From Candidatus Omnitrophota bacterium (GTDB lineage: Bacteria > Omnitrophota > Gorgyraeia > Zapsychrales > Zapsychraceae), in the NCBI GenBank assembly GCA_018062515.1, contig JAGOSC010000002.1, forward strand, positions 20,807 to 84,806: a DNA stretch of 64,000 nt, in the 5' to 3' direction. The notes under the pieces are model-generated. The model was not told the origin of the DNA. It did no database searches and was given only the letters and a program-made list of their open reading frames with translations. Within the stretch, counting starts at the first letter, position 1. The number at the start of each line of letters is the position of its first letter. Positions 37,439 through 50,106 of this stretch are shown here, one piece after another. Made by a program: the position numbers and the translations under genes.

Positions 37439-40135
37439 ATGTCCCATCCTTTGTACCGCTATAATGATGACCAGATTTCGTTTAAATCTGACAAAGCCGG
37501 TTTCAACCGTACGATGTATTTTCCCTTGTGCGGCCCGACATCTAATCACCTAAAATCTTCCATAACTGCCTATTTATCAGGCGATATTAAGCTCGATAAA
37601 AACCGCTATTTAACCAAACCTGTTTCCACGGAAGACTTGCGTCAGCCTCTACGTAATGTTTATCTTCAAATCGACAAAAACATTTTTAGTTTAGCTAATC
37701 CTCAGGATGATCCAAAGACCATTAACGTTGAGGCCGGCCCATTGTGGCATAAAGTCGTTAAACTTGATCCTCAATCTGAAATTGCTATTGAAGCTTTAAA
37801 TTTTATGCCTGTCAGCGGCGAGAATGCGGAATTAATGCGTGTGACAATCACAAATCATTCTTCTATCGTTAAAACAATGACGCCAACGGTCGCAATACCT
37901 TTATTTGCCCGCGCCTTGGAAAATAAACATGATCATGAACATGTGACGAGTTTACTTAACCGTATAAAACAAACCGAACATGGCGTTATGGTTTCTCCGA
38001 CGATGAAATTTGATGAACAAGGTCATAAGCCCAACAAAGACGTCTATTTTGTTTTTGGCATTGAAGATAATGGCCAGCGTATCAAAGGTTCTTTTCCGAC
38101 GGTAGAAACATTTTGTGGTTTGGTGGGCGATTTTAATCAGCCCGACGCTGTAATCACAAATAAAGAACCGGAAGATCTGCATGGGGATGATTTGCAAGGC
38201 CAAGAAGCGGTCGGCGCGCTGCGGTTTTACGATCTCACCTTAAATCCGAAAGAATCCAAAACGTATTTTATCGTGATTGGAATCGCCGGGAATGAAAAAC
38301 AAGCTGAAGAGGTATTTAATCGTTTTAAATTTAGTGAACAATTCAATCATGCGTTTACAGAAAATAATGCATTTTGGCTGAAAAAAACGGATTCCATCAT
38401 TGTCGACACACAGAATAAAGATTTTAACGCATGGATGCGTTGGGTCACCATTCAGCCGGTATTAAGAAGAATTTTCGGTTGTTCATTTCTTCCGGATCAT
38501 GATTACGGAAAAGGCGGAAAAGGCTGGCGCGATATTTGGCAGGATTTATTATCTTTAATTCTCATCGAACCGGAACAAGTGAAAGAGGCTTTACTGAATA
38601 ATTTTGCCGGTATTCGCATGGACGGCTCTAATGCGACGATCATTGGTTCGAATCCCGGAGAATTTATCGCTGATCGGAATGCCATATCCCGAGTGTGGAT
38701 GGATCATGGTGTTTGGCCGCTCATGACCTTGTTTCTTTATATTCATCAAACCGGTGATTTTGACATTTTATTGGCCGATAATACGTATTTTAAAGATCGG
38801 CAATTATCGAGAAATTATCGACGGGACAGTGCGGAATCCATTGATGAGGGCAATAAGTTAAAAGACATTCATAATAAAATTTATAAGGGAACGATTATTG
38901 AGCATCTTTTGGTTCAGCATCTTGTTCAGTTTTTTAATGTCGGTGAACACAATATTATTCGTCTGGAAAATGCCGATTGGAATGACGGTTTGGATATGGC
39001 CTTTCAGCGTGGAGAAAGTGTCGCGTTTACGTGTCAGTATGCGGGAAACATGTTTCAGTTGGCAACGATGCTGGAACAATTATCGACGAGATTACAGGTG
39101 CAGGAATTATCTTTAGCCAAAGAGCTAGCGATATTAATGGATACGATCAATCAACCGATTGATTATTCCAAGGTTCAAGCCAAAAAGACATTACTGTTTG
39201 ATCAATATTTTAAATCCGTCGAACCGAAACTTTCCGGAGAGAAAATCAGTCTTAACATACAAGACATTGTCAGTGATTTGCGTAAAAAAGGCCAATGGAT
39301 TTTTGATCATATCCGTCGGCAAGAGAAGATAACGGTTTCCAATCAAACTTGGTTTAATGGGTACTACGATAATAATGGGAAGCAAGTAGAAGGCCAAATC
39401 GGAAAAACGATTCGGATGACTTTGACCGGACAAGTCTTCGCGGTCATGAGCGGTTTGGCTCAAAAAGATGAAATCAAACAAGTGATCGCGGCGGCGGAAC
39501 AGTTTCTTAAAGATGAAAAGCTCGGCGGATATCGTCTCAATTCCGATTTTAAAGTTCCTCATTATCTTGAATTAGGCCGGGCATTCGGTTTTGCTTTTGG
39601 AACCAAAGAAAACGGCGCTTTTTTCAGTCACATGATTGTGATGTACGCGTTTGCTTTATATAAACAAGGTTTTGCCCGGGAAGGCTATGGGATTTTGCAA
39701 TCCATTTTCAAAATGGCGATGGACACGGACAAAAGCTGGATTTATCCCGGAATTCCTGAATATTTTGATTCCCATGGCCGGGGAAAATATCATTATTTAA
39801 CCGGATCGGCGAGTTGGCTGGTCTTAACTGTTTTAAATCAAATGTTTGGTATAGCCGGATATAATGGTCAGCTCATGTTAGCTCCGAAATTAGTCAAAGA
39901 ACAATTTGGTTCGGATGGAAAAGTCTCGATTCAATGTTATTTTGCCGGAAAGAGATTAAATATTACTTATATAAATTTAACTTTAAAGGATTATGGTCAA
40001 TACAAAGTCAAAGAAGTTGAATTCAATGGCCGTCCATTAACGTCCGTCCAGAATGAATTATCAGAATTTCTTCTCGAGCGTTCGTGGATTGAGAAATCGG
40101 CGGATGAAATAAATCTGGCGGTTAAATTAGGTTAA
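37439..40135 (+). CDS. large glycoside hydrolase / glycoside phosphorylase-like enzyme ((alpha/alpha)6-barrel type, GH94/GH15-like; family uncertain)
   Basis: 898 aa, cytoplasmic (no signal peptide). Segments such as WNDGLDMA and a long helical-repeat region are reminiscent of glucoamylase-like or cellobiose-phosphorylase-like catalytic domains (memory-based only). It heads a sugar ABC-transporter operon. Confidence 0.35.
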   Translation: MSHPLYRYNDDQISFKSDKAGFNRTMYFPLCGPTSNHLKSSITAYLSGDIKLDKNRYLTKPVSTEDLRQPLRNVYLQIDKNIFSLANPQDDPKTINVEAGPLWHKVVKLDPQSEIAIEALNFMPVSGENAELMRVTITNHSSIVKTMTPTVAIPLFARALENKHDHEHVTSLLNRIKQTEHGVMVSPTMKFDEQGHKPNKDVYFVFGIEDNGQRIKGSFPTVETFCGLVGDFNQPDAVITNKEPEDLHGDDLQGQEAVGALRFYDLTLNPKESKTYFIVIGIAGNEKQAEEVFNRFKFSEQFNHAFTENNAFWLKKTDSIIVDTQNKDFNAWMRWVTIQPVLRRIFGCSFLPDHDYGKGGKGWRDIWQDLLSLILIEPEQVKEALLNNFAGIRMDGSNATIIGSNPGEFIADRNAISRVWMDHGVWPLMTLFLYIHQTGDFDILLADNTYFKDRQLSRNYRRDSAESIDEGNKLKDIHNKIYKGTIIEHLLVQHLVQFFNVGEHNIIRLENADWNDGLDMAFQRGESVAFTCQYAGNMFQLATMLEQLSTRLQVQELSLAKELAILMDTINQPIDYSKVQAKKTLLFDQYFKSVEPKLSGEKISLNIQDIVSDLRKKGQWIFDHIRRQEKITVSNQTWFNGYYDNNGKQVEGQIGKTIRMTLTGQVFAVMSGLAQKDEIKQVIAAAEQFLKDEKLGGYRLNSDFKVPHYLELGRAFGFAFGTKENGAFFSHMIVMYAFALYKQGFAREGYGILQSIFKMAMDTDKSWIYPGIPEYFDSHGRGKYHYLTGSASWLVLTVLNQMFGIAGYNGQLMLAPKLVKEQFGSDGKVSIQCYFAGKRLNITYINLTLKDYGQYKVKEVEFNGRPLTSVQNELSEFLLERSWIEKSADEINLAVKLG

Positions 40136-40252: not shown

Positions 40253-41560
40253 ATGAAAAAACTATCTATTGCGATTCTGCTCATTGTTATGGCAGCCTTT
40301 GGTGTACAAATCATGGGCTGTGCAAAAGTTGAAGATACCAGCAACAAAATTGTTTTATGGCATTGGATGACCGACCGGGATAAAGCCTTTCAAACATTAG
40401 CTGCGAAATATGAACAGTTAACCGGTGTAAAAGTACAAATCCAATTATTCGCCCCGCCAGATACCTATTCCCAAAGAATCACCGCCTCCGCACAAGCCAA
40501 TACCCTTCCTGATATATTCGGAATTCTCGACAAAAAAGAAATTTTTGCGGACTTTATCAAATATAATTTTGTGGCCAACCTAACGGAAGAATTTAATAAA
40601 AATAACAGTGAATGGGAAGCATCGATTTTCCCCAAGGCTTTAGATGTGAACCGTTTTACCGCGGATAATATTTACGGCGTGGAACCCGGAATTTATGGTG
40701 TTCCTATTGATGTCACCAATATACAAATGCTTTACAATAAAAAACTTTTGCAAAAAGCCGGTATCAAGCAACCGCCGCAAACATTCGATGAATTTCTTGA
40801 AGCCATTGATGCTTTAAAACGAGTCGGTGTTCCCGGATTAGTTTCGGGTTGGGGAGAAATTTGGATGACCGACGCTTTTGCCTCCAATTATGCGTTTAAT
40901 ATTATGGGTGAAGAAAAAGTCATGGCGACGTACCGTGGTGATGTTCCATACACGGATAAAGATTGGATCAAAGTTTTAAGCATTTTTAGAACATTGAGTA
41001 AAAAAGGTGCTTTTATTGAAGGGATTGTGACCAAACCGAATAAAGAAGCTGAACAGGATTTTGCCCTTGAGCGGGCAGCTTTTGCTTATAACGGTTCGTG
41101 GTGTGTCAATGTTTATAGCGGGATGAATCCGGATTTGGAATATAGCGCCATGCTTCCTCCGTCGATTAATTCGAAATCACCGATGAAAATTTGGGGAGGC
41201 GCCGGATCTTCTTTTGTCGTTAACAATAATTCGAAAAACAAAGATAAGGCCATTGCCTTTTTGAAATGGCTCTCTGCGGAAGAACAACAAACTTATCTGG
41301 CCACAGAAACTAAGAATCTTCCATCAAATCAAAAAGCCTTAGCGTCCATTCCTGAAATACTTTCTGATTTCGCCAAGGTCATGGAAAATACCACTCATCC
41401 GACGATATGGAAATATAATGAATTGCCGGCGGTGACCGAAGCGTTTGATAAAGGTATTCAATCTATTATTATCGGTGAAAAAACTCCGGAAGATGTAGCT
41501 AAGGAAGTTCAGCAAGTCAAAACTCGTGAAATGGAAAAAGCGGCCAAGAAAGCTAAATAA
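40253..41560 (+). CDS. sugar ABC transporter substrate-binding lipoprotein (solute-binding family 1)
   Basis: Lipobox IMGC and a family-1 SBP pattern; 435 aa. Confidence 0.75.
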   Translation: MKKLSIAILLIVMAAFGVQIMGCAKVEDTSNKIVLWHWMTDRDKAFQTLAAKYEQLTGVKVQIQLFAPPDTYSQRITASAQANTLPDIFGILDKKEIFADFIKYNFVANLTEEFNKNNSEWEASIFPKALDVNRFTADNIYGVEPGIYGVPIDVTNIQMLYNKKLLQKAGIKQPPQTFDEFLEAIDALKRVGVPGLVSGWGEIWMTDAFASNYAFNIMGEEKVMATYRGDVPYTDKDWIKVLSIFRTLSKKGAFIEGIVTKPNKEAEQDFALERAAFAYNGSWCVNVYSGMNPDLEYSAMLPPSINSKSPMKIWGGAGSSFVVNNNSKNKDKAIAFLKWLSAEEQQTYLATETKNLPSNQKALASIPEILSDFAKVMENTTHPTIWKYNELPAVTEAFDKGIQSIIIGEKTPEDVAKEVQQVKTREMEKAAKKAK

Positions 41561-41564
41561 AATT

Positions 41565-42491
41565 ATGGCTCAATCAGCGACGGTCAAGACAATCAATTAC
41601 GAAAAATTAAAAAACACCTCTGAGAATTATATTTTTATTATTCCCGCCGTTATTATTTTTTCCATTTTTTATATTTATCCATTTATTGATATTATTATCC
41701 TTTCTTTACATGAATGGAAAGGAATAGGCCCAAAGACGTTTGTCGGTCTACAGAATTTTAAAGAACTCATAGGCGACAAAATCTGGTGGAAGTCCATTTG
41801 GAATGCCACCTACATCACTTTGTGGGCTCTGACATTTCAGAATGTTTTGGCTTTTATGCTCGCCTTGGCATGCGACCGTGAAATTCGTTTTAAGAAATTT
41901 TATCGTGTTGTTTTTTTTATTCCGCCAGTATTGTCGCAAGTCGTCGTCGGACTCATTTGGCGATGGATTCTATATTCAGGAACTCAAAATGGGCAAGAAA
42001 TTGGTCTGTTGAATTATTTTCTCGATTATGTCGGGTTGAATCATTTAGTGAATAATTGGTTGTCTAATCCAGAGACTGCTTTGACCTCTATTGCGATTGT
42101 GCATTGTTGGCAAGGATTTGGTTGGGGCTTTATTATGCTTTTGGCCGGACTGCAGACAATTGACAAGCAGTTATACGAATCAGCTAAGGTCGACGGGGCT
42201 GATAATTGGTCGACGTTTTGGAATGTCACTATTCCGATGATGGTTCCGGTTATCTTGGTGGTGGTGATTTTGACGGTTTTAGGAGCGATGCAGGCTTTCA
42301 TTTTGGTTTTATCCATGGTCAGTCAAGGGCTCGTGTATCACACGGAAGTTCCGGTGACGCGTATTTTGGCGGCCATGCAGGGGACAAAACAATTTGGTTA
42401 TGCCTGTGCTATGGGTATTAATTTTGCGATGATATTGATTTCCGTATCCGCGGTCATGAAATTAATTTCAAATAAGGCGCAACAAGCGTAA
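41565..42491 (+). CDS. sugar ABC transporter permease (MalF/UgpA-like)
   Basis: 6 transmembrane segments and the EAA-like loop (ESAKVDGADNWSTFWNVTIP). Start taken at the ATG just after the SBP stop. Confidence 0.75.
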   Translation: MAQSATVKTINYEKLKNTSENYIFIIPAVIIFSIFYIYPFIDIIILSLHEWKGIGPKTFVGLQNFKELIGDKIWWKSIWNATYITLWALTFQNVLAFMLALACDREIRFKKFYRVVFFIPPVLSQVVVGLIWRWILYSGTQNGQEIGLLNYFLDYVGLNHLVNNWLSNPETALTSIAIVHCWQGFGWGFIMLLAGLQTIDKQLYESAKVDGADNWSTFWNVTIPMMVPVILVVVILTVLGAMQAFILVLSMVSQGLVYHTEVPVTRILAAMQGTKQFGYACAMGINFAMILISVSAVMKLISNKAQQA

Positions 42492-42499
42492 ATTAAGCG

Positions 42500-43348
42500 A
42501 TGGAAAAAATAAATTTACATTTACTCAAAAGATCGTCGAAATACTTCTGTCTACATTTGTTTTTGATCGTCGTTGCTTTGACATGTTTGTTTCCTCTATT
42601 CTGGATGATTCGTTGTTCATTGATGGATAATCAGACGGTCTTTACTGATAAAGGCATCATTCCGCAGGTCATTAATTTCGGAAATTACCCAGATGCTTGG
42701 ATACAGGGAAATTTCGGAACGTATTTTTTAAATAGTTTGATTTATACAACCTGCGTTGTTTTTGGTATTGTTCTTATTTCTTCACTCGCCGCCTTTGCTT
42801 TTTCACGATTAAAATTCCCCGGAAGAAAATTTTTTTATTATATGTTTGTCATCGCTATGATGATCCCATTGCCCGGAAGTTTCGTTCCACTGTTTGTTCT
42901 TATGAACAAATTACATTTGGCTAATACCAAAATCGGCTATATCCTTTGTATGGTCAACGTGGGATTGTCGCTCAGCATCATTCTCTTAAAAACGTTTTTT
43001 GATAAAATGCCGTCGGACTTAGAAGATGCCGCCCGTATCGACGGATGTAATAAATGGCAAATTTGGTGGAATGTCGCTTTGCCGCTCGCTCGGCCTGCCG
43101 TCGCTGTCATTGTCATTTTTAATTCATTGAATGTTTGGAATGAATTTATTTTAGCCCAACTTTTGTTGAGTGATACAAAACATATGCCTCTTCAGAAAGG
43201 ATTGATGGAGTTTGCCGGCGTGCATAATACGAATTATCCGCTTTTGATGGCGGGTTTGACCATCGCCGCTGTTCCAATCATTCTTTTGTATTTGGCTATG
43301 CAAAAACATATTATTAAAGGACTATCTTCAGGAGCTGTGGTCGGATGA
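42500..43348 (+). CDS. sugar ABC transporter permease (MalG/UgpE-like)
   Basis: EAA loop DAARIDGCNKWQIWWNVALP; 282 aa. Confidence 0.75.
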   Translation: MEKINLHLLKRSSKYFCLHLFLIVVALTCLFPLFWMIRCSLMDNQTVFTDKGIIPQVINFGNYPDAWIQGNFGTYFLNSLIYTTCVVFGIVLISSLAAFAFSRLKFPGRKFFYYMFVIAMMIPLPGSFVPLFVLMNKLHLANTKIGYILCMVNVGLSLSIILLKTFFDKMPSDLEDAARIDGCNKWQIWWNVALPLARPAVAVIVIFNSLNVWNEFILAQLLLSDTKHMPLQKGLMEFAGVHNTNYPLLMAGLTIAAVPIILLYLAMQKHIIKGLSSGAVVG

Positions 43349-45675
43349 TCTCAAAATTTAAAAAATATTCCTCAATTTTTCAATATTCAGTTATTTTTTT
43401 ATGTTTAACGATGGATTGTCCGGTGTATGCACAAGACAATCCAGTTGATGTGACAGATAAGATCGTTAATGAATCTTGGGCCGCATCCAGTCAGCGTCAA
43501 GAGGAAAAGGTTAATGAGCTCGTCGGACAATGTGTTGAACGTTATCAGGAACAGGCTAAGGTACTACAAAATAGTTTAACAGCCTTCCCTAATATGACCG
43601 AAGCCAGAAAATATCAGCCGTTAAATGATATTGGTACGTGTCTTTTCATTCAAGCTGAGTATGTGATGAATTCCGGAAAAAAAGAAGAAGCGATCACCAA
43701 ATTCCAGTCGATTATTGACAATTACAGTTGGGCTCAATCATGGGATCCGAGAACCGGCGCGTTTTGGTCTATCGCCGAGAAAAGTCGTCAAAGTATTGAT
43801 GCGATGTTAGGAAAAGAAGATGTTGAAGTTGATGAAACTAAAGATGTGCTTAGAACGGTTCCGGTTTTGTTCACGAAGGGAACCGAAGACGTCGTCGATT
43901 ATACAAAATATGGACAATTTATGAATGTCGGTACTGAAAATTATATTTATCGCATGACCGATATTGAAGGCTTAAAGAAAGCGGTCGGTGAAGGGATTTA
44001 TCCAAACATCGGTGATATTTACAAAAATCCTGGTTATAAAAAAGCCAAGGCGGAAGGCCGTTTAAACGGCAGTCACTGGGATTTTGTCAATCAGGAAGAT
44101 TTAGAAGCTGCCTATTATAAATGGTTCATCGCGCCGGAACCTTGGGGCGTTCGATTGTTTTATTTAGGTTTTATTTTTGAAAGAGCGGGCATGTACGATG
44201 AGGCGCTCAAGGCTTATCAAGCTTTGGTTGTTCATTACCCAAAAACAATCGGGTACACGTATTGGCAAACACCTTGGTACCCTGGTCAAGCGGCCATTGC
44301 TAAAATCCGGCATATTTTGCGGACTCATCCGGAATTAAATTTGGAAGATGACGGCATGAGGATCATCGTCAAAAAAGGTTTTGATAATGATATTAAGAAC
44401 GATAAGATCATTACCTCGCCGGGAAAAATTTTCAAGAGAAAGACCGGTGCTAAGGCTGATAAACTGTATGCCAAAAGTAAACGAGTTAAATTGGATAAGA
44501 TCGTCGAGACCAAAGGCGATGGAATTGTTCAGTTAGTCAAATTTGATAATGGGCATTGGCAGTTAAGGGTCAATGGAAAGCCATACATAATTAAAGGGAT
44601 TACTTATGATCCGACCAAAATCGGACAATCTCCCGATAAAGGAACGCTTCAGAACTGGATGGAAGAAGATACGAACGGCAACGGCCTTGCCGACGGGCCA
44701 TTTGAGGCTTATGTGGACGCGAATCATAATAATAAGAGAGACGGAAAAGAAAAAGTCGTCGGTGATTTTAAAATCATGAAGGATATGGGCGTAAATACGA
44801 TCCGTTTCTATCACATTCCGACGACGCCGAATAAGGAAGTCCTTCGCAAGCTTTACAAGGATTATGGAATCAGAGTTATTCTCGGTGATTTTCTTGGGAA
44901 ATATGCGATTGGTTCCGGAGCGACATGGGTCGAAGGGACCGATTATGAAAATGAAGAGCATAAGAAAAATATGTTAGAGAAAGTTAAGCAAATGGTCATG
45001 GAACATAAAGATGAACCTTATGTTCTTATGTGGTTATTAGGAAATGAAAATAATTATGGGGTAGCATGCAACGCGGATAAAAAACCAGCAGCATATTTTC
45101 GTTTTGCTGATGAAGTGGCCCAATGGATTAAATCCGTCGACAAAAATCATCCCATCGCTCTCGGAAATGGGGACACTTTATTTTTAGATATTTTTGCTGA
45201 GAATACACCCAACATTGATATATTTGCCGGCAATGTGTATCGCGGAGATTATGGATTTGGATCACTTTGGGAACAAGTATCCGATGCGACTAATAATTCT
45301 AAGCCAGCTTTTATTACAGAATATGGGGCTCCTTCTTTTGCCAAACATTTGAATACCGAACAGGCGGAAAAAGCACAAGCGGATTATCATTTGGGAAATT
45401 GGCAGGACATTTATGAAAATTCCGCCGGTCAAGCTAGGGGTGTAGGAAATTCCATCGGCGGCGTTGCTTTTGAATATTTAGATGAATGGTGGAAAAATTA
45501 TGAACCATTCCGGCATGATAAAAAATCAGACGCTGTAGGGCCATTCCCGGGGGGATATTATTACGAAGAATGGTTTGGATTGGTGGGACAAGGCAATGGA
45601 CAAGACAGCCCATTTTTACGTCAACCACGTAAAAGTTATTATCTTTATAAAGAATTATGGAGTAAGGATAAATAG
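43345..45675 (+). CDS. secreted clan GH-A (TIM-barrel) glycoside hydrolase with an N-terminal ~130-aa domain of unknown function
   Basis: Signal peptide. Acid/base-like LGNENNYG and nucleophile-like ITEYG segments at GH2/GH5-type spacing. The N-terminal domain is shared with the next gene. Confidence 0.5.
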   Translation: MISKFKKYSSIFQYSVIFLCLTMDCPVYAQDNPVDVTDKIVNESWAASSQRQEEKVNELVGQCVERYQEQAKVLQNSLTAFPNMTEARKYQPLNDIGTCLFIQAEYVMNSGKKEEAITKFQSIIDNYSWAQSWDPRTGAFWSIAEKSRQSIDAMLGKEDVEVDETKDVLRTVPVLFTKGTEDVVDYTKYGQFMNVGTENYIYRMTDIEGLKKAVGEGIYPNIGDIYKNPGYKKAKAEGRLNGSHWDFVNQEDLEAAYYKWFIAPEPWGVRLFYLGFIFERAGMYDEALKAYQALVVHYPKTIGYTYWQTPWYPGQAAIAKIRHILRTHPELNLEDDGMRIIVKKGFDNDIKNDKIITSPGKIFKRKTGAKADKLYAKSKRVKLDKIVETKGDGIVQLVKFDNGHWQLRVNGKPYIIKGITYDPTKIGQSPDKGTLQNWMEEDTNGNGLADGPFEAYVDANHNNKRDGKEKVVGDFKIMKDMGVNTIRFYHIPTTPNKEVLRKLYKDYGIRVILGDFLGKYAIGSGATWVEGTDYENEEHKKNMLEKVKQMVMEHKDEPYVLMWLLGNENNYGVACNADKKPAAYFRFADEVAQWIKSVDKNHPIALGNGDTLFLDIFAENTPNIDIFAGNVYRGDYGFGSLWEQVSDATNNSKPAFITEYGAPSFAKHLNTEQAEKAQADYHLGNWQDIYENSAGQARGVGNSIGGVAFEYLDEWWKNYEPFRHDKKSDAVGPFPGGYYYEEWFGLVGQGNGQDSPFLRQPRKSYYLYKELWSKDK

Positions 45676-45741
45676 CATTTCCTTTAAATCATAAATCTAT
45701 GTAGATCAATGATTTGTGATTTTGGGTTGATTTTTGATTCA

Positions 45742-45770
45742 TTGTCAACAAATCATAGATATTGTATACT
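45742..45770 (+). promoter_or_regulatory. candidate promoter TTGTCA-17-TATACT followed by an 8-bp hairpin in the leader
   Basis: 45742-45747 TTGTCA, 17-nt spacer, 45765-45770 TATACT; acttattt/aaataagt hairpin at 45768-45789. Confidence 0.4.
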
Positions 45771-45877
45771 TATTTCACTTCAAATAAGTAGTCTTGGTTA
45801 ATAAAAATAATTTATTTTGCGATATAAATTAAATTTCTTACAACAAAAAGGCAGCAACTATCTCAAGGAGGAATGTA

Positions 45878-46735
45878 ATGAAAAAGTTTGTCTTAATGTT
45901 AACCTTTTTAGCAGCGACGGTGGGAATCATAAATCCGCACCAAGCCGCCGCTTATAATTTCGGGGATTTTCGTTCCGAAACATTAACAACAAAAGCATGG
46001 TTGGCCTTGAAAGAAGGCGATATCGAAGCTGTATTAGCTTATACGAATAAATGTGTTGAGTTATATGGTGAACAAGCTAAAAAAATGCAAAGCAGTGTGC
46101 AAGCTTATCCTACAGGAACGAATGATGAAATTTTTGGTTTTTGGGCATTAAATGATGTTGCCACAGCATTATTCATTCAAGGTGAAGCTTATCGTACAGC
46201 TAAGATGAATGATGAAGCTAAAGCCGCATATAACAAAGTGATCAATGAATATACATTCGGCCAAGCCTGGGATCCTAAAGGTTGGTTCTGGAAACCGGCT
46301 GATGCTTCAAAAGAAAAATTAGCGATGATTGAAAGCGGATCAAACGTTGATTTTGGTGATTACACCTCATCATTCTTGACGACGCAAGCCTGGAAGGCTC
46401 TTAACGATAAAGACGATGCATCTGTTATGACTTATACGGATAAAGTCATTGAATTATACGGCGCCAAGGCGACAGAAATGCAAGGTTCTTTGACAGAATA
46501 TGCATGGGAATCTAAAGATAAAATTTTTAGCTATTGGGCATTAAATGATGTCGGTACTTCATTATTTATCCGAGGCGAAGCTTACAAGAAAGCCGGTAAT
46601 GTTGAGAAAGCCAAGGAAGAATATAAAAAGCTAGTCGATAATTTCTTTTATGCGCAATGTTGGGATCCAAATGGTTGGTTCTGGAAACCCGCCGAAGCCG
46701 CTCAGCAAGCACTCGAAGAATTGAATAATTCTTAA
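45878..46735 (+). CDS. secreted protein made of two tandem copies of the ~130-aa domain also found at the N-terminus of the preceding glycosidase
   Basis: Signal peptide. Two repeats each containing Y(G)EQAK..MQ.S...YP...W.LNDV.T.LFI.GEAY....EAK..Y.K.....Y.Q.WDP.GWFWKPA. Confidence 0.5.
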   Translation: MKKFVLMLTFLAATVGIINPHQAAAYNFGDFRSETLTTKAWLALKEGDIEAVLAYTNKCVELYGEQAKKMQSSVQAYPTGTNDEIFGFWALNDVATALFIQGEAYRTAKMNDEAKAAYNKVINEYTFGQAWDPKGWFWKPADASKEKLAMIESGSNVDFGDYTSSFLTTQAWKALNDKDDASVMTYTDKVIELYGAKATEMQGSLTEYAWESKDKIFSYWALNDVGTSLFIRGEAYKKAGNVEKAKEEYKKLVDNFFYAQCWDPNGWFWKPAEAAQQALEELNNS

Positions 46736-46861: not shown

Positions 46862-47527
46862 ATGACACGGCGGTTTATTTTATTATCATGTATTTTTTTG
46901 TTATTTCTATGCGGAAAGTTATCAGCAGCGGCGGATAATTCCGTAGAAACAACCGCAGCCGAGGTTAAATCAGAAAAACCGATTGAACCGGATGTGCCTC
47001 AATCTTCTTATGTTCCTTTTTATGTATATTCCGATAAAGGCGCGAGAAGTAATCACTATGTTCCCTCGGGTTTTATGCCGGATGGCCAATGCGTTGTTTT
47101 TAATGACCAGTGGCGAGAAAATTGTGAGAGCGGCAAGACCTGCATCAAAGTCACTTACGATATAGAATGCTCCCGCAATAAAAATGAATGGGCGGGAATA
47201 TATTGGTTAAATCCTGCGAATAACTGGGGTCGACGAAAAGGCGGTTATAATTTGACTGGTGCTACGAAAATGACATTTTGGGCGAAAGGCGAATTAGGCG
47301 GAGAGCAAATACAAGAATTTACCATCGGCGGCATCGAAGGGGATTTTCCGGATACAGATAAAATTGTGATTGGGCCGGTCATTTTGTCCGACAAATGGAG
47401 AGAATATTCCATCGATCTTCAAGGAAAAGACTTGTCCTATATCAGCGGCGGATTTGCATGGACAACCGAAGTTGCTGTGAACCCAGATAATTGCGTTTTT
47501 TATCTTGATAATATAAAGTTTGAATAA
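46862..47527 (+). CDS. hypothetical secreted protein (possible carbohydrate-binding beta-sandwich)
   Basis: Signal peptide; Trp/Gly/Tyr-rich pattern (WAGIYWLNPANNWG, FWAKGELGG). No firm family. Confidence 0.4.
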   Translation: MTRRFILLSCIFLLFLCGKLSAAADNSVETTAAEVKSEKPIEPDVPQSSYVPFYVYSDKGARSNHYVPSGFMPDGQCVVFNDQWRENCESGKTCIKVTYDIECSRNKNEWAGIYWLNPANNWGRRKGGYNLTGATKMTFWAKGELGGEQIQEFTIGGIEGDFPDTDKIVIGPVILSDKWREYSIDLQGKDLSYISGGFAWTTEVAVNPDNCVFYLDNIKFE

Positions 47528-47544
47528 TAATTTAGAAAAATTAA

Positions 47545-47579
47545 AGAGACAGTCTATACGTGGACTGTCTCTTTTTTTT
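47545..47579 (+). terminator. rho-independent terminator
   Basis: agagacagtc [tatacgtg] gactgtctct followed by T7. Confidence 0.7.
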
Positions 47580-47705: not shown

Positions 47706-49049
47706 ATGTCTAGATCGACGAAGTTGGGATATATAGCGCTTATCATAATCAATATCGGTGTGATCGGGTTTTTAGGATACACGCTGTGCGAGATGAAAAA
47801 AGTGAGCGATACTAAAATCAGCGTCGAGAAAGAGTTAAAATCAGCTGAAGAGCGCGAAAAAAAATATGTCGAACAAGCCAAAAAAGCATCGACTGAAGTT
47901 GAAACATTAAAATCATCGAAGATTGATTTGGAAAAAAAATTAAGTTTGGCCCAAAAAAAATCTATTGGTCTGCAGTTAAGAATTAATGATGTCACCAAAA
48001 AAAGCAATAAATGGAAAACTCAGGTGGCATCGATCAGTCAAACCCGCGATCAACTCAATTCACAAGTAAAAACATTACAAGATCAAGTTAATACGACAAA
48101 GCAAAAGTTAGAACAACAATTAACTTTAACCCGCGAAAATATCAATTCCGGTTTAGTTTCGTCCGGTCAATCTTCAAAAGCCAGAGAAGTTTCTCCAGGG
48201 GTCATTGAGATCACTCCAGATCCATTTGATGAAAGTGTGCATCCCGTCAGCGACGAGATGTACTGGGCTTCCGTCCTGAAAGAAAAAGCCAGCCTCGAAG
48301 TTAAGATCCAACAAATGGAAGAAGCTTTAGCTAAAGGTTCAATCGAAATTGTTGAACTTAAACAATCCAATGACAGTATAAAACTAGAGCTGGAAAGCCT
48401 AAGAAACGCTAGTGATGATTTGGCTCAAGAAATCAAATACAAAAGTAATATGATCAATAATCTTTCTCTCGAATTGGCCAGAACCAAGAATGATAAGAAA
48501 TTTGTATCCGACCGTATGATCAAAATACAGGAAGAAAATAGTAATCTCCGAGGAGAAATGAAGCAGCTTGTTTCAGCTAAAGGTTCTCTTCAGAAATCCA
48601 TCGTCCGATTAACTCAAGATAAAAATAAAGTCGAACGTGAATTAGGCAGTTCAGAAAATTTAATCCAGAGTAAAATTGATGAAATCTGGGAAATCAAAGA
48701 CAGTCTCGACCGTTCGTTTAAAGAATCTGCAATAAATCTACAAAATCCCGGTTCGGTTGAGCTGCCGCCCATCATGGTCAGTTCAAATAATGATACGACG
48801 ATTGATTTCAACAGCGATGGTGCTGAGCCAGGATTTCACGGGCGCATCGTCAGCATTAATGAAGAAAATAATTTTGTGGTCGTCGATATCGGAGAAGGAT
48901 CAGGCATCGCGCTCGGCGATGCTTTGAGCGTTTATCGCGATTCGGAATATGTCGCCCGGTTGGAAGTGATCCAGGTCCGCAAAGACATTTCAGCGGCGGA
49001 CATTAAAGATCAATGGTCAAAAGTTCAAGTTGGCGACGAGATCCGTTAA
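47706..49049 (+). CDS. membrane-anchored coiled-coil protein with C-terminal beta-rich domain
   Basis: N-terminal transmembrane segment, ~330 aa of coiled coil, and a C-terminal ~90 aa rich in G/V/I/D. Confidence 0.45.
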   Translation: MSRSTKLGYIALIIINIGVIGFLGYTLCEMKKVSDTKISVEKELKSAEEREKKYVEQAKKASTEVETLKSSKIDLEKKLSLAQKKSIGLQLRINDVTKKSNKWKTQVASISQTRDQLNSQVKTLQDQVNTTKQKLEQQLTLTRENINSGLVSSGQSSKAREVSPGVIEITPDPFDESVHPVSDEMYWASVLKEKASLEVKIQQMEEALAKGSIEIVELKQSNDSIKLELESLRNASDDLAQEIKYKSNMINNLSLELARTKNDKKFVSDRMIKIQEENSNLRGEMKQLVSAKGSLQKSIVRLTQDKNKVERELGSSENLIQSKIDEIWEIKDSLDRSFKESAINLQNPGSVELPPIMVSSNNDTTIDFNSDGAEPGFHGRIVSINEENNFVVVDIGEGSGIALGDALSVYRDSEYVARLEVIQVRKDISAADIKDQWSKVQVGDEIR

Positions 49050-49089: not shown

Positions 49090-50106
49090 ATGGTCAATGA
49101 AAAAATCAGTATTAATGATGTCGCTAAACTAGCCAAAGTTTCCGTGACGACCGTGTCACGGGTCATCAATAATATTTCCACGGTGTCGGATAAAAACCGT
49201 ACCAAAGTTGAAGAGGCTGTACGGGCATTAAAATATCGTCCCAATGTCAGCGCACAGCGTCTAGCCCGCGGCCATAACAATGCTATCGGTCTTGTTATTC
49301 CCGGATATCCGGGCGTTTTTCATTCCTTTTATGCGATCGAACTGATCCGGGGTATCGGACACGCGTTGGAAGCAGCCAAAATGGATATGGTTTTTCACAT
49401 CACCGACGGGAATAATCCGATTAATACGAATCATGTCGACGGCGTTATTTTCGCCGACATTATTGAGAACCGTAAACAAGTTGAAGCGGCGATTAATATT
49501 GGCACCCCGGTTTTGATTATTAACAATGAAGTTCATGACATCGACGTGAATTATATCGCTATTGATAATACATTGGGCGGTCAGCTCGTCGCGGAATATT
49601 TATTGGGTTTCGGACACAGAAAAATTGCCACCATTACCGGAAAATTAACCACTCAAGCCGGGCAAAATAGATTGAATGGATTTAAAGAATATTTGGAGAA
49701 GAATAATGGCGGCTTGCCGGCGCATTATATTATTGAAGGCGATTATTCACGGCGAAGTGCTCGATTAGCGGCTGAGGAATTTCTTAAAATGAAAGATCGT
49801 CCCACCGCCATTTTTGCGGCCAGTGATGATATGGCTTTAGAAGCTATTGCTTTTTTTCTCGAAAAAGGACTCAAAATTCCTGAAGATATTTCGGTGATTG
49901 GATTCGATGACAATCCAACCTGTCTATTTGGGCCGGTTGCCTTGACAACCGTTCATCAACCGCTGTTTCAAATGGCTGAAGAAGCCGTGAAAATGTTGGT
50001 CAATGCCATTTCCAAAAAGAACCACTCTAAAACAAAGAAAATTCTCATCCCCGAGCTGGTTGTCCGCGAAACCTGCTGTGCTCCTCGTCCCGAGCGGACG
50101 GCTTAA
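49090..50106 (+). CDS. LacI-family transcriptional regulator
   Basis: HTH segment ISINDVAKLAKVSVTTVSRVINN plus a periplasmic-binding-protein-like sugar-binding core. Confidence 0.8.
   Translation: MVNEKISINDVAKLAKVSVTTVSRVINNISTVSDKNRTKVEEAVRALKYRPNVSAQRLARGHNNAIGLVIPGYPGVFHSFYAIELIRGIGHALEAAKMDMVFHITDGNNPINTNHVDGVIFADIIENRKQVEAAINIGTPVLIINNEVHDIDVNYIAIDNTLGGQLVAEYLLGFGHRKIATITGKLTTQAGQNRLNGFKEYLEKNNGGLPAHYIIEGDYSRRSARLAAEEFLKMKDRPTAIFAASDDMALEAIAFFLEKGLKIPEDISVIGFDDNPTCLFGPVALTTVHQPLFQMAEEAVKMLVNAISKKNHSKTKKILIPELVVRETCCAPRPERTA

Follow-up and report, generated by a model that had tools for sequence, protein, structure and literature searches.

A tetratricopeptide-repeat-derived module carried by a predicted glycosidase and its tandem-repeat neighbour in a conserved Omnitrophota cassette

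What is a small protein domain doing that occurs once at the N-terminus of a glycosidase and twice more in the non-catalytic protein encoded directly downstream? The question is raised by two neighbouring genes, which we call A and B, in a 64,000-nucleotide stretch of DNA from a Candidatus Omnitrophota bacterium (assembly GCA_018062515.1, contig JAGOSC010000002.1, positions 20,807 to 84,806 of the forward strand; hereafter the window, meaning the whole of this stretch). A reading made from the letters alone, which we refer to as the sequence-only reading, had proposed that the shared segment is a previously unnamed domain of ~130 residues with a possible role in binding carbohydrate. We found that the three segments are homologous copies of a module derived from the tetratricopeptide repeat (TPR), that the module is repeatedly fused to enzymes acting on beta-glycans, and that A and B belong to a gene cassette kept across Omnitrophota genomes. 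On this basis we predict, tentatively and with some doubt, that the module is a non-catalytic domain for the handling of beta-glucan.

The homology of the copies was established by pairwise and profile comparison. BLASTP aligned residues 27-148 of B with residues 158-279 of the same protein at 49% identity (E=8e-46), and aligned A with each of them, i.e. residues 37-151 with copy 1 (34% identity, E=4e-21) and residues 40-154 with copy 2 (32% identity, E=4e-19). A profile of 25 diverse module sequences (A3), when run against all six-frame open reading frames (ORFs) of the window, aligned significantly with these three copies and no others, with E-values from 2e-50 for the copy in A to 4e-55. 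With such E-values the repeat is real and far beyond chance, and the claim that the three segments represent one discrete, mobile domain was upheld. Its placement in A was wrong, as the sequence-only reading had put it at residues 55-185 and it spans residues ~37-156. The proposed motif is found in both copies of B and in part in A, where the corresponding sequence is YQEQAK..LQNSL..FP...LNDIGTCLFIQAE...EEAI..FQSII.NY.WAQSWDPRTGAFWSIAEKS. A also has a second, degenerate TPR-like unit, where A3 gave a weak and partial match (residues ~269-322, E 0.55) and BLASTP against the B copies was weak (E 0.008-0.009); the Pfam TPR matches of A fall on this unit, outside the module copy (residues 271-301; TPR_6 37.1 bits, 3.6e-9; TPR_2 28.3 bits). 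The description as secreted is reasonable for both proteins, given their signal-peptide-like N-termini.

The sequence-only reading had left it to structure prediction to decide between a helical and a beta-sandwich fold, and an unknown fold unrelated to TPRs was not borne out. The AlphaFold2 model of B, made from a 30-sequence alignment, has a predicted local distance difference test score (pLDDT) of 86.8 and is all helical apart from a two-strand hairpin. In module 1 of B the helices span residues 33-45, 49-72 (a long helix), 89-107 and 111-124, with a loop containing a short helix after the second of them; a two-strand beta-hairpin at the sequence W-D-P-x-G-W-F-W then precedes a capping helix (140-153), and the whole pattern recurs in copy 2. 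AlphaFold2 predicts the matching arrangement for the module of A, with helices at 39-49, 53-77, 91-109 and 113-126, a hairpin at 131-134/139-142 and a helix at 143-155. The WDPxGWFW hairpins of B have pLDDT values of 68 and 76, compared with more than 90 elsewhere in B, which suggests that the aromatic hairpin is an exposed element; lower confidence is what one would expect of a loop at the surface and not of a core element.

Both the sequence and the model of the module point to TPR proteins. Pfam matches above the gathering thresholds were found at the central repeat of each copy in B (TPR_6 41.2 bits, cut-off 26.3; TPR_2 33.9, cut-off 27; TPR_8 31.6, cut-off 25.7; TPR_1 29.2, cut-off 27.8), the best-scoring model being the YbgF/CpoB-type TPR_6. 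Foldseek against the PDB returned TPR proteins exclusively, with weak matches (best E 1.2e-3, TM-score at most 0.35), and sequence and profile searches of the PDB with the module gave nothing significant, the best being the CpoB TPR 6g5s (E 0.025, profile). The second hairpin of each module carries the canonical G8, Y11, A20, Y24 pattern, and the AlphaFold2 model of B consists of helix-turn-helix hairpins in an alpha-solenoid. A classical TPR array would have at least three canonical 34-residue repeats in a row, whereas Pfam recognises one per module; this, together with a divergent first hairpin and a beta-hairpin insert, sets the module apart as a TPR-derived domain, i.e. a fixed unit of ~125 residues and ~2.5 repeats. 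In the model it would be built from a divergent TPR hairpin with a long second helix, a loop, a canonical TPR hairpin, the aromatic beta-hairpin Q-x-W-D-P-x-G-W-F/Y-W and a capping helix. What it has in common with the TPR superfamily (TPR_6/TPR_2/TPR_8/TPR_1) is therefore its hairpins, its canonical second repeat and its structural neighbours, whereas it differs in being a fixed unit in place of an open array and in two features of its own, the invariant aromatic hairpin and a first B-helix that is extended and starts with a conserved L-N-D.

Several more specific assignments were tried and rejected. Membership of CpoB/YbgF (TIGR02795) failed at 20.2 bits against an NCBIfam cut-off of 90.1 (E 7e-4, covering only residues 94-125 of B), and the scores for BamD and SctY were far under their NCBIfam cut-offs. 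A classical beta-sandwich carbohydrate-binding module (CBM) was rejected on the helical secondary structure of the AlphaFold2 model and the TPR matches, and no CBM model appeared among the Pfam matches at E<=1 for A or B. The Pfam TPR models span ~30 of the ~125 module residues and the remaining ~95 are uncovered by Pfam or NCBIfam. The description of the domain as unnamed therefore survives in one sense, in that no Pfam, NCBIfam or PDB family covers the module as a unit, and fails in another, in that its fold is TPR-like and known. Besides the Pfam and Foldseek matches there is a name in GenBank, where A and B are both 100% identical to entries called 'tetratricopeptide repeat protein' from a Candidatus Omnitrophica metagenome-assembled genome (MAG), so the module does in part map to an existing annotation. 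The TPR fold class and the TPR label were thus already known; new are the lineage-specific variant and its cassette, of which we found no description. The Omnitrophota literature that we searched mentions generic TPR genes and GH2-type flanking genes and leaves module and cassette undescribed.

The residues common to A-type and B-type copies are, in A3 numbering, W16, Y38, Q46, N67, D68, E78, Q104, W106, D107 and W113. Most of the positions shared by the two types thus have an aromatic or an acid/amide side chain, and a basic residue is conserved at none of them. At least E103 would look into the concave groove, since it occupies position 9 of the repeat, on helix A, and canonical TPR geometry turns that position towards the groove. 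Each copy of B also has invariant positions of its own, e.g. E-Y-x-W-E-S in copy 2 only.

The module family is large. When searched against 1.84 billion representatives, the module profile recovered 1383 clusters (50% identity) at E<=1e-3 and 904 at E<=1e-10. The best 155 module proteins include 81 with one copy, 46 with two and 15 with three, the maximum being seven; the commonest form, accounting for those 81 representatives, is a single-module secreted protein of 150-230 residues found in varied contexts, and almost all of the single-copy proteins whose N-termini were inspected (25/66) start with a signal peptide. In the module proteins examined, the module is either preceded by a signal peptide or situated past a membrane span, so that it would be extracytoplasmic. 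B has more than 2000 relatives at 90% clustering, mostly of 284-286 residues and ~70% identity, together with longer forms of 397-464 residues that contain three module copies in those examined, and orthologues of A in Omnitrophota MAGs are 60-83% identical. To sample genomic context we scanned GTDB, one genome per species, with an alignment of B (A1), a query that recovers B orthologues rather than all module-bearing proteins. This gave 203 stretches encoding B relatives, and all locus statistics below refer to the best 80 of these, with loci that have enough flanking sequence as denominators. Almost all of the 80 loci are from Omnitrophota MAGs or from genomes labelled 'uncultured Planctomycetales', with one locus labelled Lysobacterales, and the named members of the module family are from Omnitrophota except for one 5953-residue protein labelled Parcubacteria. 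The 'uncultured Planctomycetales' and other outlier labels are probably placeholder or binning labels. Judged by the named members and the GTDB loci, the module therefore appears to be almost exclusive to Omnitrophota so far.

Domain fusions connect the module to glycan enzymes. In P0282 a signal peptide and two modules are followed by a GH128 domain (PF11790 5e-44; PDB 6uaq family 1.5e-26), and P0291 and P0363 are giant module proteins with GH2_C/GH72-like barrels of clan GH-A, like that of A; the P0291 gene adjoins a GH5 gene. P0294 (1202 residues, from an ENA metagenome contig) combines an N-terminal membrane anchor, an A-like glycoside hydrolase (GNENNY), two modules, membrane spans and a GT2 domain of cellulose-synthase type. 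This hydrolase-TPR-synthase fusion recalls the division of labour between BcsA, BcsZ and BcsC. Elsewhere the module is joined to a chitobiase C-terminal domain (P0258) and to RHS repeats (P0311). Finally, P0347 (638 residues) consists of a Ser/Thr kinase, a membrane span and then two modules, and a member of its cluster, P0396 (702 residues), lies on a 160-kb contig; by implication the module can serve as a sensor outside the cytoplasm, its position beyond the membrane span being typical of a ligand sensor. Fusions of the module with enzymes that cleave or synthesise beta-glycans are thus recurrent, and these enzymes include two unrelated beta-1,3-glucanase-related families. CAZy regards as a CBM a discrete, independently folding non-catalytic sequence inside a carbohydrate-active enzyme, which is how the module occurs in A, P0282, P0291, P0363 and P0294, and its spread over unrelated enzyme families of one polymer, in tandem and as a standalone protein, is like that of CBMs.

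The enzyme to which the module is attached in the window itself has its closest solved relatives among beta-1,3-glucanases. A is ordered as signal peptide, module, degenerate TPR unit, beta domain and clan GH-A TIM barrel. It matches Pfam GH2_C (6e-15) and GH72 (1e-6), and phmmer against the PDB found the GH158 endo-beta-1,3-glucanases 9oro (1e-9) and 6pal (2e-9) over ~135 residues. Foldseek returned 9p25 and 6pal with E-values of 1e-10 to 1e-9 (best 1.7e-10), target TM-scores of 0.47-0.53 and 17-20% identity; GH72 beta-1,3-glucanosyltransferases come next after GH158 among the solved relatives, with GH72 and GH2 scoring close behind. N567-E568 (in GNENNY) and E659 (in ITEYG) are invariant in 30 A orthologues (alignment A2), and by the clan GH-A rule E568 would be the acid/base and E659 the nucleophile. 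A thus resembles GH158 (BuGH158 6pal; GH158(Pro) 9oro/9p25) in its GH-A TIM barrel with conserved NE and E motifs, and is unlike it in being only ~17-20% identical in the aligned region and in having ~460 extra N-terminal residues made up of the module, the TPR unit and the beta domain. The barrel could belong to GH158 as a distant member, or to a GH-A family that is as yet unclassified. Our literature search found no work linking GH158 with TPRs.

A and B lie within a cassette of genes on the same strand (Table 1), and distant genomes of the phylum show the same order of solute-binding protein, permease, permease, A, B, C, D, LacI. The cassette is kept in at least 60 Omnitrophota species genomes. 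C lies directly downstream of B in 71/75 loci and is its most constant neighbour; A is directly upstream of B in 60 of 69 loci, the second permease is present in 54/62, D in 60 of 68 and LacI in 60/67. Compared with the genes of the window, median identity was 66% in B against 61% in A, 57% in C, ~38% in D and 70-71% in the permeases; lying near the permeases and above A, B is one of the cassette's most constrained genes. The importer genes show 64-96% identity across loci. Upstream of the importer, the GH94 protein aligns over its full length with 6ggy, 'Laminaribiose phosphorylase' (E=6.6e-266, residues 6-891 against 8-901).

Table 1. Coordinates of the cassette and of the features within it; positions are those of the window and residue numbers (aa) those of the protein concerned.
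Feature	Position	Strand	Description and evidence
GH94 phosphorylase	37439..40135	+	cytoplasmic, laminaribiose-phosphorylase type; Pfam GH94; phmmer PDB 6ggy
ABC (ATP-binding cassette) sugar importer	40253..43348	+	lipoprotein solute-binding protein and two permeases; orthologues with SBP_bac_1, BPD_transp_1
Gene A	43345..45675	+	776-aa multidomain glycosidase, predicted to be secreted; ORF
Module copy in A, aa 37-156	43453..43812	+	BLASTP against B copies, profile A3, AlphaFold2
Degenerate second TPR-like unit in A, aa ~245-327	44077..44325	+	aromatic-rich tail YWQTPWYPGQAA at its end
Catalytic (beta/alpha)8 domain of A, aa ~465-776	44737..45672	+	Pfam region 467-666; GH158/GH72 structural matches
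A-B intergenic signals	45686..45770	+	near-palindrome 45686-45715, promoter-like 45742-45770; consensus matches only
Gene B	45878..46735	+	285 aa, signal peptide and two tandem modules; ORF
B module copy 1, aa 26-152	45953..46333	+	BLASTP, A3; Pfam TPR_6 at aa 97-125
B module copy 2, aa 157-285	46346..46732	+	BLASTP, A3; Pfam TPR_2 and TPR_8 at aa 228-253
Gene C	46862..47527	+	221-aa protein, predicted to be exported; lipobox in most orthologues; fold without match
Terminator-like hairpin	47543..47574	+	14-bp stem and T run, directly after C
Gene D	47706..49049	+	447 aa, hydrophobic N-terminal segment and long coiled coil; sequence reading
LacI-family regulator	49090..50106	+	cassette end; ORF; L001-L005 orthologues with Pfam LacI and Peripla_BP

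The two genes downstream of B have few recognisable relatives among characterised families. C gave no Pfam, NCBIfam or PDB match, even with a profile of 18 sequences (A4), and one could argue that less is known about it than about the TPR module. Its family comprises more than 2600 clusters, among them Omnitrophota proteins of ~383 residues in which the C domain occurs twice in tandem; in the orthologues of C, invariant positions include several Cys and many Trp/Gly. D has a probable N-terminal membrane anchor, ~350 coiled-coil residues with only weak coiled-coil-type Pfam and NCBIfam matches, and a small beta-rich C-terminal domain with a weak FlgT_C match (E 0.08). The 202-bp spacer between A and B contains a 30-bp near-palindrome, AAATCATAAATCTA-tg-TAGATCAATGATTT, which is a candidate operator, and a promoter-like site (TTGTCA-17-TATACT, a consensus match only). 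With this site upstream and the terminator-like hairpin downstream, B and C may be transcribed as a unit of their own. A comparison of the upstream regions of the solute-binding protein gene and of B for a shared LacI operator revealed no common palindrome.

The reading that we favour, tentative as it is, is that the module handles beta-glucan, and four considerations lead to it. The module is spread over unrelated glycan enzymes, occurs in tandem and standalone and forms the outer domain of a kinase, which is the distribution of a ligand-binding module; the residues common to A-type and B-type copies are mostly aromatic or acid/amide and none is basic; the invariant aromatic hairpin is less confidently modelled, as for an exposed loop; and there is a TPR precedent, of which the closest is that the TPR module of PgaA binds its polysaccharide in the concave groove and stimulates the partner hydrolase PgaB (PMC9384988). 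If this is correct, the module would hold a beta-glucan chain by means of its concave face and aromatic hairpin, and would deliver substrate to, or retain it for, the enzyme to which it is appended or next to which it is encoded. On this view B would be a soluble, multivalent accessory protein that binds glucan and works together with the lipoprotein C. For the cassette as a whole we infer a pathway in which A would act as an extracytoplasmic endo-beta-glucanase, the ABC importer would take up the resulting disaccharide or oligosaccharide, and GH94 would carry out phosphorolysis in the cytoplasm, all under LacI control. A bolder version, that the module founds a TPR-fold CBM family specific for beta-1,3- or mixed-linkage glucan and that it forms, with C and the coiled-coil protein D, an undescribed non-Sus glycan-capture apparatus feeding the ABC importer, we regard as doubtful.

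Comparison with known systems shows where this prediction would fit. The module resembles the CBMs of CAZy in being a discrete non-catalytic domain, single or in tandem, on GH158-like and GH128 enzymes and also standalone; it is unlike them in matching no Pfam CBM model, and the binding activity that defines a CBM is in its case a prediction. No CBM family is known to have a TPR-type helical fold. With the TPRs of exopolysaccharide synthases (PgaA, BcsC, AlgK and PelB) it shares the coupling of a periplasmic TPR to a glycoside hydrolase, and P0294 has both a hydrolase and GT2; however, there is no detectable sequence kinship and no porin domain, and the setting in the window is catabolic (importer, phosphorylase and LacI), without a secretion operon. 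The SusD-like and surface glycan-binding proteins of Bacteroidota are similar in layout only, i.e. a helical TPR accessory beside a glycosidase, a transporter and a regulator, with the lipoprotein C next to B. Unlike SusD, B is no lipoprotein and is accompanied by an ABC importer for uptake in place of a TonB-dependent SusC; it has no Pfam SusD match, which argues against membership of SusD/RagB, and no cysteine in its signal-peptide cleavage region. In the collection of complete Omnitrophota genomes described in a 2026 preprint (10.64898/2026.06.07.730766), Sus-type architecture is reported to be missing.

Several observations weigh against a role in glycan handling. The module is not confined to glycan loci, since the single-module protein P0305 is encoded in a phosphate-transport neighbourhood and two-module B paralogues are found among housekeeping-type genes (L082:6001-6858, L083:5779-6852 and L085:5941-6855). 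In some genomes (e.g. the MAGs nzgw300 and nzgw301) such a paralogue, of ~60% identity, is a second B-type gene, and its surroundings contain neither a glycosidase nor C or D. The classical role of TPR domains is in protein-protein contacts, and the invariant positions specific to each copy of B would fit a distinct partner for each copy. The phosphorylase also varies: in L001 and L002 the GH94 enzyme is of the cellobiose/chitobiose-phosphorylase type (L001:1212-3629 matches 3qde at 4e-144 and is only 23% identical to the GH94 of the window), which suggests that the cytoplasmic phosphorylase step may have been swapped between lineages. Because the GH94 type differs, the exact glucan linkage is uncertain and may differ between lineages. 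Finally, a related cassette in L089 and L090 has the module on an A-like enzyme and has no B. It comprises (L089:4181-14538, L090:5542-15654) a solute-binding protein, two permeases, in brackets of the gene order a major facilitator superfamily (MFS) transporter, a one-module A-like glycoside hydrolase, a two-C-domain protein, a module-less A-like glycoside hydrolase (416-432 residues), a 519-550-residue protein, an ROK kinase, which stands in for the phosphorylase, a D-like coiled coil and LacI.

The strongest competitor, which we consider somewhat unlikely, is that the module serves protein-protein assembly: the module of A would dock on B, and B would bind C and/or D to form a periplasmic or surface enzyme complex, with no contact to sugar. 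Docking could be homotypic, or could use the N/D-F-G-D-F/Y-x-S segment that opens each B module, making B a small scaffold with two to three sites. The canonical protein-binding role of TPRs, the invariant residues specific to each B copy and the family members outside glycan loci, all raised above, speak for such a complex, as does the arrangement of one copy on the enzyme and two or three in tandem on a non-catalytic neighbour, which is similar to enzyme/scaffold systems. The link between B and C is the tightest in the cassette and outlasts the loss of A, as B-C-D-LacI occurs without A and the importer in L020, L051 and L069, and the very high conservation of B is as expected of several interfaces. 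However, the module is also carried by GH128, GH-A, GT2 and kinase proteins whose loci have not been shown to encode B, C or D, and in L089 and L090 it is on A with no B on which to dock. A weak argument is that TPR grooves for peptides typically have a basic or hydrophobic clamp, which is missing from the conserved residues of the module. The TPR of PgaA binds its enzyme partner too (PMC9384988), and by analogy with PgaA, which does both, the glycan-handling and scaffold models would not be exclusive.

It is improbable, in our view, that B, C and D form an envelope system apart from sugar capture, of a Tol-Pal/CpoB-like or lipoprotein-tethering kind, that merely shares the locus, with the module of A serving as an anchoring tag. 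Such a system would account for the best, though non-significant, matches of the module being to CpoB/YbgF TPRs (TIGR02795 and 6g5s), for the predicted lipoprotein nature of C in most orthologues, for D reading as a membrane-anchored coiled coil, for the promoter-like and terminator-like signals that flank B-C and for the B paralogues in housekeeping contexts. The CpoB score is far under its cut-off, though, and a LacI-type sugar regulator ends the cassette in most loci, with the order kept together with importer and glycosidase; moreover, the variant cassettes again join C-domain proteins, D-like proteins and A-like glycosidases. We give even less credence to a generic TPR spacer, or a folding or export helper, with no specific ligand, in which case the link to glycans would reflect expansion of a repeat family in Omnitrophota secretomes. 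Single-module secreted proteins in varied contexts are indeed the commonest form of the family, but hundreds of species show no change at many polar and aromatic positions, those of the entire hairpin among them, and a passive spacer would not be as conserved as B, whose identity is at the level of the permeases. A classical CBM with a compact, non-TPR, beta-sandwich-like fold akin to no annotated domain, for which the aromatic-rich sequence, the attachment to glycosidases and the absence of a CBM or other Pfam family spanning the module might have spoken, has next to no chance of being correct, as its fold is refuted by the helical AlphaFold2 model, the Pfam TPR matches above threshold and the exclusively TPR Foldseek matches; the TPR name in GenBank also speaks against it.

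Of these explanations, glycan handling remains the one that we prefer, and the consequences depend on the outcome. There is nothing unusual about the fold class, but the family is large, shows strong conservation and is linked to beta-glucan enzymes in a phylum of which little is understood. A dedicated profile would supplant the uninformative label 'tetratricopeptide repeat protein' on well over 1000 protein clusters. If the module proves to be only a protein scaffold, it would be a routine lineage-specific TPR subfamily, whereas if it binds beta-glucan, a helical TPR-type architecture would join the carbohydrate-binding modules. Omnitrophota are uncultured and very small, and their lifestyle is debated, with free-living, predatory and parasitic modes all proposed; they are thought to be largely host-dependent or predatory. 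The cassette is among the most conserved sugar-acquisition loci in the genomes sampled, and four of its components, A to D, would be exported: besides D these are A, which carries the module, B, which is made of it, and C, which represents a second lineage-specific domain outside the curated libraries. Binding of beta-glucan by the module would therefore provide a clue to the diet of Omnitrophota, e.g. algal laminarin or the beta-glucan walls of their hosts or prey.

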